This document shows, piece by piece, positions 13,403-28,427 of a stretch of 41,360 bases of DNA (the stretch's first letter is position 1; each line of letters starts with the position of its first letter). The stretch comes from a phage. Where the stretch lies: assembly GCA_027217645.1 (NCBI GenBank), contig GCA_027217645.1_4344.1; one strand, written 5' to 3'. Below the pieces are notes generated by a model that worked only from the letters and a program-made list of their open reading frames with translations, had not been told where the DNA came from and made no database searches. The translations under genes were made by a program, and so were the position numbers.

Positions 13403-13594
13403 ATGAAACACGAATATGACCGCAAACCAGCACGTGACATCGTACCGGGTGACATGATTTTCAACGTTAAGACACGTCAACCTGTTGCCGTTGATACGGT
13501 GTTCGTCGAGTCGAACGGTAAACTGGTTATCGAAGATGTAACGGGTAACGTTACGGCGTTCGGGCGTAAAGAGCTGGTGCTGGTGGCGAAATGA
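13403..13594 (+). CDS. Hypothetical protein
   Basis: Track ORF 63 aa; AAGGA RBS; stop overlaps the methyltransferase ATG as ATGA. Confidence 0.45.
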   Translation: MKHEYDRKPARDIVPGDMIFNVKTRQPVAVDTVFVESNGKLVIEDVTGNVTAFGRKELVLVAK

Positions 13595-14415
13595 ACTATT
13601 ACAATGAATGGGATAAAGGCGCAGCCGCGTGGCTGCGTGAGTTGATAAAACAGGGTCACATACCTTTTGGAGTTGTAGATGAAAGAAGCATTACCGAAGT
13701 TAAGCCAGAAGACCTTGACGGGTTCACCCAGTGTCATTTTTTCGCGGGTATCGGCGGCTGGCCTCTCGCGCTCAGACTTGCGGGAGTTTCGGAGGATACG
13801 CCTCTCTGGACGGGAAGCCCGCCTTGCCAACCGTTTAGCACGGCAGGAAAACAACTCGGACAGTTCGACCCGAGACACCTCGCGCCGGTCTTCCTCGACC
13901 TCATCAGCGAGTGCCGCCCTCCAGTCATCTTTGGGGAGCAGGTTGCGGCAGCAATTGCAAAATCGTGGATGTGCGATTTACAAGCTCACCTGGAAGGAGA
14001 AGACTACGCCGTCGGGTTTGCTGTACTCCCAGCTTGTAGCGTCGGCGCACCGCACAAAAGAGAACGACTCTTCTTTGGCGCGCACGAACTGGCCTACACC
14101 GACAGCGAACGACTTCAGAGGGAGCGGAGAGACAGTGATTCGCACGGACGGGAGGGACAGAACATTCGACAGGCTGGACTACTCAACAGAGCAGGGATTG
14201 AAAGCGAGTCAACCAACCCGCACCACGGCTTCTGGTCAGATGCTGACTGGCTCGGATGCCGTGATGGAAAGTTCCGGCCGGTTGAACCCGGCGCATTCCC
14301 GCTGGCTAATGGGATACCCGCAAGAGTGGGACGATTGCGCGGTTACGGCAATGCCATCGTCCCGCAAGTAGCCGCCGAATTTATAAAGGCGTTTATGGGG
14401 GCCGTAAATGAGTAA
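13591..14415 (+). CDS. DNA (cytosine-5)-methyltransferase
   Basis: Track ORF 274 aa; motif I FAGIGG, motif IV PCQPFS, degenerate motif VI GEQV, motif VIII-like HKRERLFF, C-terminal motif [14 protein letters not shown]; stop overlaps the helicase start. The +1 frame of the same DNA also carries methyltransferase-like motifs (see findings). Confidence 0.7.
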
Positions 14416-22784: not shown

Positions 22785-25057
22785 TATTTAAACCCCGGCG
22801 CATTTCTTGTGGCTTTGCGGGCCTTGCTAATCTTGCTGTTGCTATTCTGCAAAGAGGCAGCCACCTGCTCCTCGATGATGATTCGCAAACGGCCTTCGTC
22901 ATCTTGCTCAGTGGATACGTTGCCGATTTGAGAACTCGTGTTGTTTACGATAGTAACATTAGACGGGCCGGAAGAAGACCCGTTTTGCCCCATAATTTCT
23001 TTCATCTGCTGTGCTGTGCGAACACGAGATGCGCCAGCCGGCATAATAACTTCTGGTTTACCGCGTTCAGCGATAGTAGAAGCCTGCCCGGCGGATAACT
23101 GCCCACCCTGTTCACGTGCGGACCGGATAGCGGAAATCTGCGCCATACCTGCACCAACGGCAGCGGCAGCGGCTACAGGGGCTAGGAAGGGGCCAACAAC
23201 GGGGATAGCAGCCGTTGACTTGTACGCTTCAATGGCTGCGGTGTATGTGGCGATAGTGGCCTGCACAATAGCGAATGCCTTGTACGCGCCAGAAGCCTCA
23301 CCCAACGCAGACCCGATGTTTGAGGCCATGTTACCAAAGGCCGTTGCCGTTGCATCGGCACGTTTGGTTGCGTATTGCTCGTTGATGGCGTTAAGAGCGG
23401 CCTGATACTGCTTCTCGCTAATCAGCCCCTGTTCACGGTATTTATCAGCTACCGCCAGTTTCTGCTGTTCCTGGATGTCGAGAAGCTCAAGCTCAGTAGC
23501 GTTCTGACCCATAATCTGAGCCATGAAGTCGTCACCTTTCTGCTGCTTTTCCTGGGCTTCTTTCTGGCGTTTATCCAGTTCATCTTGCCGTTTTTGCCCG
23601 GCTTCGAGGACGATAGCTGTTTTAGCCTGTTCGTATTCTTTCAGCGACAGCGCGCCCTGGCTGTAGAACTCTTTTGCCTTAGCCAGTTTCTGCTGTTCCT
23701 GCGCGTCGATAGCCTTTAACTCATCGTTGTTCTGGCGAGCCAAAGTGTCGAGGTAATCCTGCGCCTGATTCCGCAATTGTTCTGCTTTCTTGGCGGCGGC
23801 TTTTGCCGCTTTATCGTCGGTGTTTCCTGCCCCGCCAGTTCCGCCCTTTTTATTAACAAGACTGGCTAAGTCAATTTCTTGCTTCTTGCGCTCGTCGTAC
23901 TGCTTGCGCTGTTCCTCAATTTCTTTCTTACGCTGCTTAGACCTGTTGGTAATGGCCTGTGATTCTGCCTCTGCGCGTTTTATGCTAGCGGCGTACGCGG
24001 CGTCGGCCTCTGCGGTCAGGTTTTTAAATGTTAGCGCCGCCGTTTTGCTCGGGTCAAACACGTCGGCAAGGGTCTGCCCTAACGCTACAGCGTAATCGTC
24101 GATGCGCTGGAACCACGCAATAACCTCGTGAAATGTCTGCTGGATGTCCGGCAACCACTCACGGATGGCATCCGGTATAGTCCCCAGCGAGTCAGACATA
24201 TCAACGGATTTGTCCTCGGTATCGAATGCCAGGTCATTCAAGGCGTCGGAAATAAACTTGAATGACTCATTGAACAGCGCCACCCAATCCTGGAGCGTGG
24301 CGGCTATCTCATTAGACGCGATGGCGTCGGTAAGCGCCGTGATAGCGTCTTCCGCTGTGGCCGCTTGCTCACCTACGGCGTCGCCAAAACCAGACTGCGC
24401 CACCGCAAGAACAAGACCGTCGAAGGAGTCCGCCAGGCTAGATAACTGACCATCTAAGGTCTTCGAGCGCGTCTCCATCGCTCCGGCGAAATCAGTGTTA
24501 CCGATATTTAGCAGGTATTTCTGAATCTCTTCGGAGTTCTTTTTAACCGTGGTCGTTACGCCACGGAACGTAAACGAAACTGTATCCGCCTGTTGGGAAG
24601 ACTTGATACCGAACTCTTTTAAGCGCTCAAATTCAAATGTACTGGCGTCGGCAACTGCCTCAATCATTTGGTTAAGGTCTTTGCCCATAGCTGCGGCGGT
24701 GTTGCCGTAGGATATTAACGCCTCTTTGCTGGGGTTAAGACCTAGCGCCACGAGCTTGGTAAACCCCTCTACCGCCTGATTGAGGCCATACGGAGTTTCT
24801 TTTGCGAACTGTTGCAGGACGCTGAATGCCTTAGCAGCGTTCTCGGCGCTCCCGGTCATTGTGATGAGGCCGGAGTTCAGCTTATCGAAGTTGCGCTGGG
24901 AGTCCACCAGCGCACTGAACACCTGTTTGGCAGTTTCCAGACTGACAACGGCAGCGGCGGCGGCCCCCGCGGCTTTGGTAAGCCCGTTCAGTTGTGATGT
25001 GGTTTTATCGACGCCGGTCGATGATACTCGTACGATCAAGCTAGCGGTATCAGCCAT
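22784..25057 (-). CDS. Tail tape measure protein
   Basis: Track ORF 22784..25072 with start at the ATG at 25057; long Ala/Gln/Glu/Lys-rich coiled-coil protein downstream of the G/T chaperone pair. Confidence 0.85.
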   Translation of the reverse strand: MADTASLIVRVSSTGVDKTTSQLNGLTKAAGAAAAAVVSLETAKQVFSALVDSQRNFDKLNSGLITMTGSAENAAKAFSVLQQFAKETPYGLNQAVEGFTKLVALGLNPSKEALISYGNTAAAMGKDLNQMIEAVADASTFEFERLKEFGIKSSQQADTVSFTFRGVTTTVKKNSEEIQKYLLNIGNTDFAGAMETRSKTLDGQLSSLADSFDGLVLAVAQSGFGDAVGEQAATAEDAITALTDAIASNEIAATLQDWVALFNESFKFISDALNDLAFDTEDKSVDMSDSLGTIPDAIREWLPDIQQTFHEVIAWFQRIDDYAVALGQTLADVFDPSKTAALTFKNLTAEADAAYAASIKRAEAESQAITNRSKQRKKEIEEQRKQYDERKKQEIDLASLVNKKGGTGGAGNTDDKAAKAAAKKAEQLRNQAQDYLDTLARQNNDELKAIDAQEQQKLAKAKEFYSQGALSLKEYEQAKTAIVLEAGQKRQDELDKRQKEAQEKQQKGDDFMAQIMGQNATELELLDIQEQQKLAVADKYREQGLISEKQYQAALNAINEQYATKRADATATAFGNMASNIGSALGEASGAYKAFAIVQATIATYTAAIEAYKSTAAIPVVGPFLAPVAAAAAVGAGMAQISAIRSAREQGGQLSAGQASTIAERGKPEVIMPAGASRVRTAQQMKEIMGQNGSSSGPSNVTIVNNTSSQIGNVSTEQDDEGRLRIIIEEQVAASLQNSNSKISKARKATRNAPGFK

Positions 25058-25382
25058 GATTTCTACCTTCAAAGATTGCTTCTAAGCCCATGATAATGTC
25101 TATCTCGAACAGGCTAAGCTGTTTTTGCGTAACATCGAGATAGGCTTTCAGGTCTTGCCACGTAACGGATTCTCTTGCGAACAATACTACAGCGTCCTCG
25201 CGCACGTGTCGCGTAAACTTAATGTCGCAGTACGTCTCGAAGGTGGATATAAAAAGGGGCGGGCATTCTGGCCCACCCCGTCGCGCTGCACGTTTTTTCT
25301 TATCGATTACACCCATCGCGATAAGCGCCTGTTCGTGTCCGTCGGCTATAGAATCAAACTCTCTGATTTTATGCTTATCCAC
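25050..25382 (-). CDS. Tail assembly chaperone T-like extension, probably made as a G-T fusion by -1 frameshift
   Basis: Track ORF 110 aa in the -1 frame relative to the G-like ORF; this frame is open from the TGA at about 25437 through the end of G; stop overlaps the tape measure start. Confidence 0.4.
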   Translation of the reverse strand: MDKHKIREFDSIADGHEQALIAMGVIDKKKRAARRGGPECPPLFISTFETYCDIKFTRHVREDAVVLFARESVTWQDLKAYLDVTQKQLSLFEIDIIMGLEAIFEGRNHG

Positions 25383-25414: not shown

Positions 25415-25831
25415 CTACTTTTCCTGTAATGCTTTGCGCTCAGCGTTATGGAACGCTGCTACCTGTGTGCCTAATGCCTTGAACTGGTCCAGCAATTTGT
25501 TAAATGCTTCTTTAGAGAAAGGCTCATCAAAGCTCCAGCCGTTTACGACTTCTGCCGCGAGTTGCCGGTTGAGGCCTTCCGCCAGTTCGTTAATAGCCAG
25601 GTTATATTCAGTATAGTCGCCGGATTCTTTGGCGGCTTTTTCCAGTTCTTCGAAACGCGCCAACCCGCGACGGTACGCAATAATGAAAGCACGCCCCGCT
25701 TTAACGGCGACATCCGCATCGGGACTTACAACGTTAAGCCATTCACCGGAGTCTTCGCCGTTTGGCAGCAGAATGGGCATCTTCTTGCCTACCAGTGCTT
25801 TCTCTTCGAAATAAAAATCAGAAAGTTTCAT
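25415..25831 (-). CDS. Tail assembly chaperone (lambda G-like)
   Basis: Track ORF 138 aa; AAGGA RBS; position between the major tail region and tape measure; followed by a -1 frame ORF. Confidence 0.55.
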   Translation of the reverse strand: MKLSDFYFEEKALVGKKMPILLPNGEDSGEWLNVVSPDADVAVKAGRAFIIAYRRGLARFEELEKAAKESGDYTEYNLAINELAEGLNRQLAAEVVNGWSFDEPFSKEAFNKLLDQFKALGTQVAAFHNAERKALQEK

Positions 25832-25939
25832 TCTTTAATCCTTTGGTTAAGAGGTTACAGGTTAACGATAAATGCGCCAGACGGGAACCACCCGCTTTTC
25901 GTGTGCGACACTAGGCGCAAACTTATTCTATCACATTAC

Positions 25940-25968
25940 TTGCACACCCCAATATAATAGGGTACTAT
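25940..25968 (+). promoter_or_regulatory. Sigma70-like promoter, TTGCAC-N17-TACTAT class, driving the plus-strand cassette
   Basis: Seen in sequence: TTGCAC (25940-25945), 17 nt spacer, TACTAT (25963-25968); box AATAGGGTACTATT (25956-25969); near-identical to the minus-strand promoter at 3714-3742. Confidence 0.55.
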
Positions 25969-25998
25969 TCACTTACACCAACAATGAAGGGGTTTAAA

Positions 25999-26190
25999 AT
26001 GTCCAGTTTACCAGTTTCCTTAATTCTGTTTGCACTGCTCGCTTATTTCGCGCCTTTCCTGGTTGCGTACTTCCGTAACCATAAAGCGAAGTTAGCGATA
26101 TTCATGGCTAATCTGTTTCTTGGTTGGGTTCTGCTGCCGTGGGTATTTATCTTAATCTGGGCGTGCAACTCGAATGTCAAAGAGAAGTGA
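25999..26190 (+). CDS. Small two-helix membrane protein (superinfection-immunity-like or holin-like)
   Basis: Track ORF 25984..26190 with start at the ATG at 25999 (GAAGGGG RBS); two hydrophobic helices around a basic loop (YFRNHKAK). Confidence 0.5.
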   Translation: MSSLPVSLILFALLAYFAPFLVAYFRNHKAKLAIFMANLFLGWVLLPWVFILIWACNSNVKEK

Positions 26191-26227
26191 GCTAGTATAG
26201 GACAAATCCTAAACACGAGGAATAAGC

Positions 26228-27358
26228 ATGGCCAGGAAGAAAATAACCGACGAACAGTTACAGGAAGAATTGAACGCCGGTATGAAGAATATCGACATCG
26301 CCCGTAAATACGGCATCTCCGACCGCGTTATTCGTATCCGTAAAGCGAAGCTGGCTAAGAAAGGTGTAGGCCACGGGCGTGACGTTAGTTACCTTGTACC
26401 GGACGGCTACAAGATTAAAGGAACGTCATCACTGGTGGATGAGTTTGGCAACACCAAGTTGCAATGGGTTAAGACCGACACCGATGCCGAACGTCAGGTT
26501 GAATTGATGAAAGCCGTAATCGAAGGCATGAAGTCGGAGATTACACCAGTTGCACCTGTTAAAGCCGTTCGCGCCAAACGAGACGACAAGCTACTCAACC
26601 TTTACACTGTGTCTGATTTCCATCTCGGTATGCTGGCCTGGGCTGACGAGAGCGGCGACGACTGGGACATGAAGATTGCGGAAGACCTGTTCTCCCGCTG
26701 GTTCGACGCAGCGTTCCAGAAAGCACCGGATGCCGGAACAGGAGTTATTAATCTGCTGGGCGACCTTGCGCATTTCGATAGTCTGGACGCCGTTACACCT
26801 GCCAGTGGTCATGTTCTTGACGCTGACACCCGCTATCAGAAACTTGTACGCTACATGATTCGTATGGTCCGCCGTGTCATTGATATGGCTCTCGTTAAAC
26901 ATAAAAATGTTCGCTTGCTTATCGTGCAAGGTAACCACGACGAAAGCGGAATGATTTGGTTAGCTGAGATGTTTAGTACGCTGTACGACAATGAGCCGCG
27001 TGTGTTCGTCGATACGTCGCCGGATGTTTACAAGATGGTGCAACACGGCAAAACGACGCTGTTCTTCCATCATGGGCATAAAGCACGATTCGACGCTATC
27101 GAACCGGTTATGATCGCCAAGTTCCGCAAAGCGTTCGGCGAGAGTGTTTACAGCTACGCCCACGTGGGTCACCTGCACCACCAAAAGATTGTAGAAAGCC
27201 GTAACATGATTGTTGAGCAACACCGCACTCTCGCGGCTAAAGATGCATATGCCTCCCGCGGTGGGTGGATGTCGGGCCGCAGTGCAAACGTAATTACTTA
27301 TAGCGCCGAATATGGCGAGGTCGCACGTTTAACTATTTCACCGGAGATGCTTGGATGA
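26228..27358 (+). CDS. Calcineurin-like metallophosphoesterase with N-terminal HTH domain
   Basis: Track ORF 376 aa; N-terminal HTH-like DIARKYGISDRVIRIRKAKL; phosphoesterase motifs SDFHLG, GDLAHFD, GNHDE, GHLHH. Confidence 0.65.
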   Translation: MARKKITDEQLQEELNAGMKNIDIARKYGISDRVIRIRKAKLAKKGVGHGRDVSYLVPDGYKIKGTSSLVDEFGNTKLQWVKTDTDAERQVELMKAVIEGMKSEITPVAPVKAVRAKRDDKLLNLYTVSDFHLGMLAWADESGDDWDMKIAEDLFSRWFDAAFQKAPDAGTGVINLLGDLAHFDSLDAVTPASGHVLDADTRYQKLVRYMIRMVRRVIDMALVKHKNVRLLIVQGNHDESGMIWLAEMFSTLYDNEPRVFVDTSPDVYKMVQHGKTTLFFHHGHKARFDAIEPVMIAKFRKAFGESVYSYAHVGHLHHQKIVESRNMIVEQHRTLAAKDAYASRGGWMSGRSANVITYSAEYGEVARLTISPEMLG

Positions 27359-27840
27359 AAGATATTGTGATTTTCGATTTAGACGGGACATTGGCAGATG
27401 GTACTCATCGTTTACACCTGCTGCCGAAAGATAACTACGGCGAAACCTGGGCGTGGAAACCATTTAACATGGCGTGCAAAGACGATGCACCCATTAAAGA
27501 TAACATCGAACTGTGTAACGCCCTTAATCGTCGCTATGCCGTTATTATCTTAACAGGCCGTAGTGATGACGCGGAAAAAGAAACCAGAATGTGGTTGCAG
27601 CGCCACCGCGTCGAATTTTATCAGTTAATCATGCGCAGCAAACACGACAACAGAAAAGACATCGTAATTAAAGAAGAGGTGTTGCGTGCTATTGGGCCGG
27701 AGAGAATCTTGTGTGCATTCGACGACTCTCCAGCGGTAATAAAGCATTTCCGCGAACTCGGCATAACCACTCACGCAGTTACTGAATACGACTGTAACGG
27801 GAACTCTACACACTTAAAACCACATGGGAGTGATAAATAA
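27355..27840 (+). CDS. HAD-superfamily phosphatase (nucleotidase or polynucleotide-phosphatase-like)
   Basis: Track ORF 161 aa; N-terminal FDLDGTL catalytic motif; ATGA overlap with upstream gene. Confidence 0.6.
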   Translation: MKDIVIFDLDGTLADGTHRLHLLPKDNYGETWAWKPFNMACKDDAPIKDNIELCNALNRRYAVIILTGRSDDAEKETRMWLQRHRVEFYQLIMRSKHDNRKDIVIKEEVLRAIGPERILCAFDDSPAVIKHFRELGITTHAVTEYDCNGNSTHLKPHGSDK

Positions 27841-28394
27841 TGGCTAAGGTAATTATTCTTAATGGTCCTGCGGGCTGCGGGAAAGACACACTTGCTAGGG
27901 TGCTGGTAGAAATGGGCTTTGCGAAGGGTGTCGCCAGTTTCAAGAATCCGATGTTCAATATTGCTATGGCTGCGTTAGGCCAGGATGCTTACCGCGAGTT
28001 TCTCGACGGCTACGACGACCGGGCGCGGAAAGAAAAGCCAGAGGGTTTCCTTAACGGGTTGTCTCGGCGTCAGTTCATGATTGCCATTTCCGAGCAATTC
28101 ATTAAACCGGTATTCGGTGATGATTATTTCGGTAAGTATCTTGCCGGAAACTTGCCCGACGGCGACGAAGTTTTTGTGGTGTCTGATGGCGGGTTCGCCA
28201 GCGAAGTAGCCCCTATCGTTGCCGCGGGGCATGATGTGAGAATCGTCCGCTTGCACAGAGACGGCCATACGTTTGAAGGGGACAGCCGCGGTTACCTGTA
28301 CGATATTAATGGTGTAAAAGATTATGACACCTACATCATACCGGGTTACGTTAAATCGAACGCTATAGGCATTGCTTTAAGATTAGGTTTGTAA
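27840..28394 (+). CDS. Deoxynucleoside monophosphate kinase-like P-loop kinase
   Basis: Track ORF 184 aa; Walker A GPAGCGKDT with the GKDT signature seen in T4/T5-type dNMP kinases. Confidence 0.6.
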   Translation: MAKVIILNGPAGCGKDTLARVLVEMGFAKGVASFKNPMFNIAMAALGQDAYREFLDGYDDRARKEKPEGFLNGLSRRQFMIAISEQFIKPVFGDDYFGKYLAGNLPDGDEVFVVSDGGFASEVAPIVAAGHDVRIVRLHRDGHTFEGDSRGYLYDINGVKDYDTYIIPGYVKSNAIGIALRLGL

Positions 28395-28396
28395 GA

Positions 28397-28427
28397 AAAA
28401 GGCCCCGTTTGGGGCCTTAGTTTTATG
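28397..28427. terminator. Bidirectional rho-independent terminator (identical to 15969-15999)
   Basis: Seen in sequence: same 31 bp hairpin plus flanking A/T runs; the major tail gene stop codon lies in the T tract. Confidence 0.7.

Follow-up and report, generated by a model that had tools for sequence, protein, structure and literature searches.

Among the metallophosphoesterases (MPEs) of the calcineurin-like superfamily, the Mre11/SbcD nucleases (those of T. maritima, P. furiosus, E. coli and S. aureus, with T4 gp47 as the phage version) combine an MPE nuclease domain with a C-terminal capping domain and a Rad50/SbcC partner, and DP1, the small subunit of archaeal PolD and a 3'-5' proofreading exonuclease, has an OB domain and the polymerase DP2 as its partner. 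The MPE nuclease of Pseudomonas putida (Lhr-MPE operon; PDB 6nvo) is a stand-alone DNA endonuclease that has no Rad50 partner. In phage T5 the predicted metallophosphatase A1 is both necessary and sufficient for the degradation of host DNA; it has been likened to double-strand-break-repair nucleases and to proofreading exonucleases, is toxic to E. coli and acts together with the DNA-binding protein A2. The class III cyclic-nucleotide phosphodiesterases (Rv0805/CpdA) as well as MJ0936, YfcE and LpxH also belong to the closest known systems. Here we describe a phage gene of this superfamily, located at 26228..27358 (+) of a DNA stretch of 41,360 nucleotides (GenBank assembly GCA_027217645.1, contig GCA_027217645.1_4344.1; the whole stretch is referred to as the window), whose product carries an N-terminal helix-turn-helix (HTH) domain in front of the MPE core. 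We propose that this protein is an MPE nuclease that acts on DNA, is tethered to it by the HTH and works independently of Rad50, its likeliest role being host-chromosome breakdown or DNA-end processing during lytic growth, a reading to which we give about an even chance of being correct.

The window corresponds to an approximately complete siphovirus genome of about 41 kb, and the region matches E. coli K1 phages such as K1H at 99.5-99.9% identity, i.e. Kagunavirus of the Guernseyvirinae (megablast). As a gene it is unremarkable, belonging to a catalogued family and annotated before: the K1H annotation notes its similarity 'to SETP3, Era103 and T1', and near-identical genes and relatives are labelled metallophosphoesterase, DNA repair exonuclease or (winged) HTH protein in databases. 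Judged from sequence and model, the distinctive feature is a predicted solo phosphoesterase resembling Mre11 and DP1 that carries a swappable HTH head and is now tied to toxicity and immune sensing.

Domain architecture, fold and family

The open reading frame (ORF) encodes 376 amino acids (aa), begins with ATG and cannot be extended upstream in frame, this being the first start after a stop codon; a ribosome-binding site (GAGGA, 26217..26221 (+), read off the sequence) lies 6 nt before it. Conservation was analysed in an alignment of the protein with 94 relatives at 32-50% identity (95 sequences), and the AlphaFold2 model was calculated from the same alignment. A first homologue search had yielded only sequences at least 97% identical, and the diversity was obtained from representative and profile searches. 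In the model (mean pLDDT 93.5, pTM 0.80) three helices (residues 8-16, 21-28 and 32-44) form an N-terminal HTH (residues 8-44, 26249..26359 (+)) that contains DIARKYGISDRVIRIRKAKL at residues 23-42 and is basic, with 13 Lys and Arg versus 6 Asp and Glu over 45 residues, corresponding to a net charge of +7. It is followed by a flexible linker (residues 45-60, 26360..26407 (+)), where the pLDDT drops to 60-69 and to less than 50 at residues 49-53, and by a family-specific subdomain ahead of the catalytic core, which consists of a β-hairpin (residues 61-85) and a helix (residues 87-103; 26408..26536 (+)). Two residues of this subdomain, G74 and W80, are at least 90% conserved in the 95 sequences and invariant in a 12-sequence alignment. 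The binuclear MPE core extends from about residue 119 to the C-terminus at residue 376 (26582..27355 (+)) and adopts the β-sandwich fold of the calcineurin-like superfamily.

All five binuclear metal-ligand motifs (DxH, GD, GNH(D/E), H and GHxH) are present in the core, namely motif I (D130-x-H132, in SDFHLG 129-134), motif II (G178-D179-x-x-H182, in GDLAHFD 178-184), motif III (G235-N236-H237-D238, in GNHDE 235-239), motif IV (H282, in HHGH 281-284) and motif V (G314-H315-x-H317, in GHLHH 314-318), and they are accompanied by a family-specific loop (T190-P...L197-D198-x-D-x-R202). D130, H132, G178, D179, N236, H237, H282, G314 and H317 are invariant, and H182, H284 and H315 are at least 90% conserved, the motif II histidine H182 (GDxxH) being kept in 92 of the 95 sequences. 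The protein matches phrog_704 ('DNA repair exonuclease') over its full length (E 3.7e-167, residues 4-375 versus positions 2-389 of the 390 of the profile). The Pfam scores remain under the gathering cut-offs, with 21.6 versus 27 bits for Metallophos_2 (PF12850) and 18.9 versus 21.5 bits for Metallophos (PF00149), and at E ≤ 0.01 just 22 (PF00149) and 15 (PF12850) of the 95 sequences are matched. By their sequences, the phrog_704 proteins are a divergent MPE branch that escapes the Pfam models. The NCBIfam scan gave no useful match, a single-sequence phmmer search against PDB returned a spurious ATPase match only, and no match to the defence and anti-defence families of PADLOC was found.

For the HTH the 376-aa protein alone gave a GerE match below threshold (Pfam, E 0.012), and the family profile matched GerE (1fse) among the PDB sequences at E 0.061. 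Other members of the family match HTH models of Pfam, i.e. Sigma70_r4_2 (1.5e-9), GerE (2.4e-8), HTH_8, HTH_1 and HTH_50, and these matches secure the assignment. Profiles and model together identify the N-terminal domain as a real HTH of the LuxR/GerE or sigma-70 region 4 type, which is predicted to bind DNA. The domain is more variable than the core, with a mean pairwise identity of 26% versus 40%, and its type differs between members; P0134 has two HTHs in tandem, and the homologue of Campylobacter phage NCTC12673 has none.

A structure-based comparison of the MPE core (Foldseek) revealed DNA nucleases, namely DP1, Mre11 and SbcD, as the closest folds, Rv0805 also being among the matches. 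When the family profile was compared with PDB sequences the sole MPE matches were T. maritima Mre11/SbcD, which were marginal (E 0.15-0.37) and ran from motif I through the GDLLH of motif II. The modelled fold thus leans towards the nuclease clade, short of being decisive. Sequence identity to the phage MPE is 12-17% for the Mre11/SbcD proteins, which share with it an MPE nuclease domain with a motif II histidine (GDLFH type), and 12% for DP1. The phage protein lacks the OB domain and the DP2 polymerase partner of DP1, and instead of the C-terminal capping domain of Mre11 it has the N-terminal HTH and the β-hairpin/helix subdomain. One metagenomic relative carries the label of the P. putida MPE nuclease.

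The lambda Ser/Thr phosphatase belongs to the same superfamily and T5 A1 has been reported to interact with RNA polymerase, both of which would be in line with a DNA-tethered protein phosphatase of the lambda PP kind that acts on DNA-bound host proteins (RNA polymerase, nucleoid proteins). We regard such an activity as extremely improbable; the signatures of PPP-type protein phosphatases like lambda PP (GDxHG, GDxVDRG and GNHE) are not matched by the phage protein.

The family is large. By tblastn it was detected in 2051 phage records, 1961 of which cover at least 80% of the query, and a HMMER scan of 1.84 billion cluster representatives (50% identity) gave 4630 matches at E ≤ 1e-3, mostly of 370-400 aa, and 1148 at E ≤ 1e-30. 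The carriers identified by tblastn are Guernseyvirinae, Drexlerviridae (T1, TLS, Bas1), Webervirus, Dhillonvirus, Era103-like Autographiviridae and phages of Vibrio, Rhodobacter, Rhizobium and Ruegeria, and shorter forms without HTH were found in Campylobacter and Flavobacterium phages. A chromosomal member of Burkholderia pseudomallei is located inside a lambdoid prophage. The family, with about 4600 clusters at 50% identity, is therefore widespread in virulent and temperate phages of Proteobacteria, Campylobacter and Flavobacteria, and the HTH-MPE fusion is the standard architecture of a large, phage-restricted family.

A preliminary description of the gene, made from the sequence alone, had proposed an HTH within residues 1-60 followed by a calcineurin-like motif series. 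Both hold: every motif string it quoted is present, no metal ligand is lost in the alignment, and the HTH proper comprises residues 8-44, residues 45-60 being the linker, so that the N-terminal segment is a basic three-helix HTH with profile matches across the family and not a non-DNA-binding helical linker. The structure prediction and fold comparison that it suggested gave a confident model with an HTH and an MPE fold whose nearest neighbours are the nucleases named above. It was wrong for phages, however, in calling a DNA-binding domain on such an enzyme unusual, because the fusion is the default architecture of a common phage family (phrog_704).

Orthologues and the proposed DNA nuclease

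The sole family member with any experimental data is bas01_0050 of phage Bas1 (AugustePiccard, MZ501051), a 376-aa protein that is 46% identical to the protein of the window over the whole length (E 1e-116). TLS gene 66 is a 45% identical orthologue, and together with the 'putative phosphoesterase' of T1 these proteins (45-46% identity) have the same length and the same HTH and MPE layout. Bas1 mutants that escape the reverse-transcriptase defence DRT7/UG10 carry missense or frameshift mutations in bas01_0050, in parallel to lambda escapers of DRT7, which lose gam; the gene, named a putative nucleic-acid-targeting phosphoesterase by the authors, is toxic in E. coli on its own, which prevented co-expression, and the frameshift phages are viable (bioRxiv 10.64898/2026.02.16.706125). 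The toxicity, the viable frameshifts and the escape from DRT7 together indicate that bas01_0050 is dispensable in the laboratory, harms the host by itself and is needed for DRT7 to fire.

T1 and TLS degrade the host genome and reuse its nucleotides, and according to the 2024 re-annotation of TLS, in which gp66 is listed as 'proof-reading exonuclease', the gene products responsible have not been identified (PMC11447400). In T5 this task is carried out by A1, which works alongside A2, and the HTH-MPE protein has fused into one chain the two functions that T5 divides between A1 and its separate DNA-binding partner. Around motif III the agreement between T5 A1 and the family extends past the core motif (ESNHDLALSRWL versus EGNHDxxxSxWLR). 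T5 A1 differs in being a 556-aa, essential, pre-early protein, whereas the Bas1 orthologue is dispensable; it matches phrog_1745 only and not phrog_704, and no similarity was found between T5 A2 and the HTH. Direct homology to A1/A2 was rejected (a 20-column match at 18% probability for A1, nothing for A2), and T5 A1/A2, like T4 gp46/47, are retained as analogues, i.e. as work-alikes in the proposal, the HTH-MPE protein being a sequence-level member of neither family.

DNA targeting is the function we favour because the fold neighbours are nucleases, motif II is of the Mre11 type (GDxxH), a swappable HTH is combined with a constant core and the Bas1 orthologue is toxic. Genes of DNA metabolism next to the MPE gene in Erwinia phage S2, in a Campylobacter phage and in L013 (names of this form are identifiers from our survey) provide supporting context. 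In the proposed mechanism the HTH would hold the enzyme on double-stranded DNA via the disordered tether of about 15 residues, and the MPE core would hydrolyse DNA phosphodiester bonds with Mn2+ or Mg2+ alone, i.e. with no Rad50-type ATPase. During lytic growth the enzyme would attack host DNA, or free or replicating DNA ends, and an attack on host DNA would supply nucleotides and remove a competitor for expression and packaging. The same nuclease activity would make the protein toxic and create the DNA ends or breakdown products that DRT7 detects, and in this phage the products could be cleaned up or re-phosphorylated by the two optional neighbours, the Pnkp-type 3'-phosphatase and the P-loop kinase. 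Here we infer DNA as the substrate, host DNA as the target and the handling of the products by the neighbouring 3'-phosphatase and kinase.

The preliminary description had offered two functional ideas, the targeting of the enzyme to DNA and the degradation of second messengers used by host immunity. The first is favoured by the folds, the GDxxH motif, the modular HTH and the toxicity of the Bas1 protein. The second, an anti-defence phosphodiesterase acting on the cyclic oligonucleotides of CBASS or type III CRISPR, on cCMP/cUMP, on cAMP or on another small phosphodiester, found no specific support, the presence of Rv0805 among the Foldseek matches notwithstanding. We consider it very unlikely, since an HTH tether, host toxicity and a context of DNA metabolism are not what a scavenger of cyclic nucleotides would predict, PADLOC was empty, and on DRT7 a phage that has lost the gene fares better, not worse.

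The nuclease reading can tentatively be taken further, although the broader version is clearly the less probable one: the siphophages of the T1-like (Drexlerviridae), Dhillonvirus and Guernseyvirinae groups might all use the HTH-MPE protein as the nuclease that degrades the host chromosome. DRT7, and perhaps further sensors of DNA degradation, would then respond to its products, and the choice between DNA to attack and DNA to spare would lie with the swappable HTH. Guernseyvirinae have been reported to be sensitive to Ec2ApeA, which senses 5'-phosphorylated deoxydinucleotides, and the m6dAMP sensor PUA-Cal-HAD blocks a Tunavirinae phage; the links of the literature on Metis, PUA-Cal-HAD, ApeA and daunorubicin to the family are circumstantial.

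Several points weigh against a DNA nuclease of this kind. The DRT7 data come from a preprint without residue-level detail (bioRxiv 10.64898/2026.02.16.706125). Unlike Mre11/SbcD the phage protein stops with the MPE core at residue 376, leaving no C-terminal capping domain, and a Rad50/SbcC partner is missing from the phage genome, as no gene for a Rad50/SbcC-type ABC ATPase was found in the K1H annotation, among the large ORFs of the window or in Pfam scans. The hhalign comparison with T5 A1 (phrog_1745) aligns 20 columns at motif III only, with a probability of 18%. Members are also found in temperate lambdoid prophages, for which one would less expect the host DNA to be destroyed wholesale, and many lineages have the gene beside lysis or terminase genes and not among the early genes. 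Moreover, a Dhillonvirus carries a 76%-identical copy, yet Dhillonvirus has been reported to be resistant to Ec2ApeA, and such a nuclease would in addition have to spare the DNA of the phage itself.

The family is a concrete and easily testable candidate for the host-genome degradation gene of T1 and TLS. If the nuclease reading is true, it would explain why a Drexlerviridae phage needs its MPE gene to be caught by DRT7, and it would connect a phage nuclease with immune sensing, just as T4 denA is connected with Metis and PUA-Cal-HAD. It would also concern phage therapy, as the destruction of host DNA bears on the risk of transduction and the carriers include Kagunavirus/K1-specific, Webervirus and Jersey-like phages.

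Gene neighbourhoods and alternative functions

Genomic contexts were surveyed at 93 loci, which fall into 31 lineages when the MPE is clustered at 70% identity; ORFs were called with a crude procedure of our own. The commonest neighbours were an endolysin gene (8 lineages, about 380 bp downstream), an adjacent HNH homing endonuclease (7), a HAD phosphatase (5), a portal gene (5), a kinase (4), the large terminase (4+4) and DNA ligase (3). In the Drexlerviridae T1, TLS and Bas1 the MPE gene precedes the holin, endolysin and spanin genes, has a homing endonuclease next to it and lacks HAD and kinase neighbours, whereas the Kagunavirus gene is part of a plus-strand cassette inside the tail genes. 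In the Guernseyvirinae the MPE is consistently found between tail assembly chaperone and major tail protein, and the genes that flank it there are swapped. In lambdoid contigs it follows the nin region, just ahead of lysis or terminase genes. The MPE gene thus moves independently of its neighbours, and it tends to sit at the boundary between DNA-metabolism and late modules, sometimes together with end-processing or nucleotide enzymes.

The latter association raises the question of an end-healing enzyme. Like the phosphoesterase module of bacterial Pnkp, the MPE might process the ends of broken RNA or DNA, with the activity of a 2',3'-cyclic phosphodiesterase or a 3'-phosphomonoesterase, and it would join the HAD protein, the kinase and, in other phages, a ligase in mending breaks made by host anticodon nucleases or DNA nickases. 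The order MPE, HAD_PNKP, P-loop kinase is found in at least four to five lineages (Kagunavirus, Yersinia phage 646, Erwinia S2 and L048/L050, and L045), having recurred independently in Yersinia phage 646 and Erwinia phage S2. A DNA ligase follows in three lineages and precedes the gene in a Campylobacter phage, where the MPE adjoins it. In Erwinia phage S2 a 5'-3' exonuclease/endonuclease pair is followed by the MPE, the Pnkp-type phosphatase, the kinase-like protein and then a DNA ligase, and in L013 the MPE comes after a DUF2800 exonuclease, SSB and PolA. Moreover, the HAD protein is homologous to the phosphatase domains of Pnkp1 and T4 Pnk, and clean-up of RNA ends has already been proposed as a role of phage calcineurin-like enzymes. 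Nevertheless, we give end healing only a small chance. The HAD/kinase pair is optional: the two genes are present or absent together, about half of the relatives with a more than 93% identical MPE lack them, and so does the majority of the 31 lineages, among them T1, TLS, Bas1, Dhillonvirus and Jersey-like phages. The pair being facultative, the MPE does not depend on it. Furthermore, the HAD enzyme would already provide 3'-end healing, an HTH of the duplex-DNA type is unexpected on an enzyme that repairs tRNA, toxicity does not fit a repair function, and no ligase is evident in the window, judging from the K1H annotation and the large ORFs. An obligatory repair trio of MPE, Pnkp-type phosphatase and kinase was rejected outright, the pair being missing in about half of the near-identical Kagunavirus relatives and in most lineages.

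The position of the gene in other lineages would be explained by a DNA-bound regulator or an accessory factor of maturation or packaging, with the HTH sitting at late promoters, at pac/cos or at sites of replication intermediates and the MPE processing the DNA or a protein bound to it. The gene usually lies at the lysis/terminase boundary, where endolysin, portal and large terminase genes are its commonest neighbours; in Dhillonvirus B2 the order is holin, lysozyme, MPE, TerS, TerL, and the lambdoid position, after the nin region and before lysis or terminase, is the slot of lambda Q. Besides, the HTH resembles sigma-70 region 4 and LuxR, and there is a weak N-terminal match to a late-activator PHROG. 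We nonetheless judge a regulatory or packaging role to be unlikely. Frameshift mutants of the Bas1 orthologue form plaques, which means that this protein is not essential, be it as a late activator or as a packaging factor. In the window the gene lies inside the tail module with its own promoter-like site, away from lysis and terminase genes, and a search for operator-like repeats or palindromes upstream of the cassette found none. The strict conservation of every catalytic residue points to an enzyme and not to a repressor, and a position at a module boundary is typical of accessory genes, too. A late-gene activator in the lambda Q slot was rejected as the main role, the Bas1 frameshifts being viable and the catalytic residues all conserved. 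Should the protein turn out to be an end-healing or regulatory factor instead of the DNA nuclease that we favour, this would still be the first function for a large family.

The copy of Escherichia phage B2 (Dhillonvirus; L095, 3492-4634) is 76% identical to the Kagunavirus protein, other families being at 45-55%, and its location between lysis and terminase genes differs from that in Kagunavirus. The high identity at a different genomic location points to a fairly recent horizontal exchange of the gene between coliphage genera.

Homing-endonuclease genes of the HNH or GIY-YIG type abut the MPE gene in T1, TLS, Bas1, a Vibrio phage and the B. pseudomallei prophage, and in 7 of the 31 lineages in all (L002 5207-5689; L096 9966-10637; L014 39208-39693; L004 5241-5750; L009 7284-7772 and 9277-9984), and this recurrence suggests that the MPE gene is a favoured landing site for mobile endonucleases. 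In a lambdoid metagenomic contig (L011, 8565-8927) a gene of the Acb2/Tad1-hairpin family (anti-CBASS/anti-Thoeris sponge type) is located about 1.4 kb downstream of the MPE gene, after a lysozyme gene.

The plus-strand cassette and other features of the window

The MPE gene is the second of four plus-strand genes set within the minus-strand tail module. A candidate sigma-70-like promoter (ATCACA-17-TATAAT, 25930..25958 (+); 10 of 12 matches in a consensus scan, i.e. a pattern only) lies upstream of the cassette. The first gene (25984..26190 (+)) encodes a 68-aa membrane protein of the Imm_superinfect type (Pfam PF14373, E 9.3e-13; phrog_1039, E 4.7e-23), and in close relatives it is replaced by an unrelated 108-aa ORF. 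The third gene (27355..27840 (+)), whose start overlaps the MPE stop (ATGA), encodes a 161-aa HAD phosphatase of the Pnkp type (Pfam HAD_PNKP, E 6.7e-20), which matches Pnkp1 (4xrp, 1.7e-6) and T4 Pnk (1ltq, 1.8e-4) in PDB. The fourth (27840..28394 (+)) encodes a P-loop kinase-like protein of 184 aa that matches phrog_139 (E 6.6e-46; PHROG label dNMP kinase), only P-loop matches being found in Pfam and PDB; its substrates may be dNMPs or the 5' ends of polynucleotides. Together the HAD 3'-phosphatase and the P-loop kinase (27355..28394 (+)) resemble a split polynucleotide kinase-phosphatase in reversed order. A hairpin resembling a bidirectional intrinsic terminator (28399..28418, scored on both strands; 8-bp stem with 6 G-C pairs) is located exactly between the cassette and the converging major tail gene.

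The phage polymerase is of the PolA type and is encoded elsewhere in the genome. On the other side of the cassette the pair of tail assembly chaperone ORFs (25415..25831 and 25050..25382 (-)) is annotated in K1H as one joined coding sequence with a programmed frameshift. Finally, two ORFs in different frames, 13591..14415 (+) with 274 aa and 13679..14371 (+) with 230 aa, overlap almost completely, and K1H annotates both as DNA methyltransferase. The 274-aa ORF matches the C-5 DNA_methylase family of Pfam (E 4e-17) and phrog_363; the 230-aa ORF has no Pfam match and matches phrog_1008 and phrog_31772, both labelled DNA methyltransferase. The 230-aa frame is either a shadow ORF whose annotation has been propagated, or a case of genuine overprinting.

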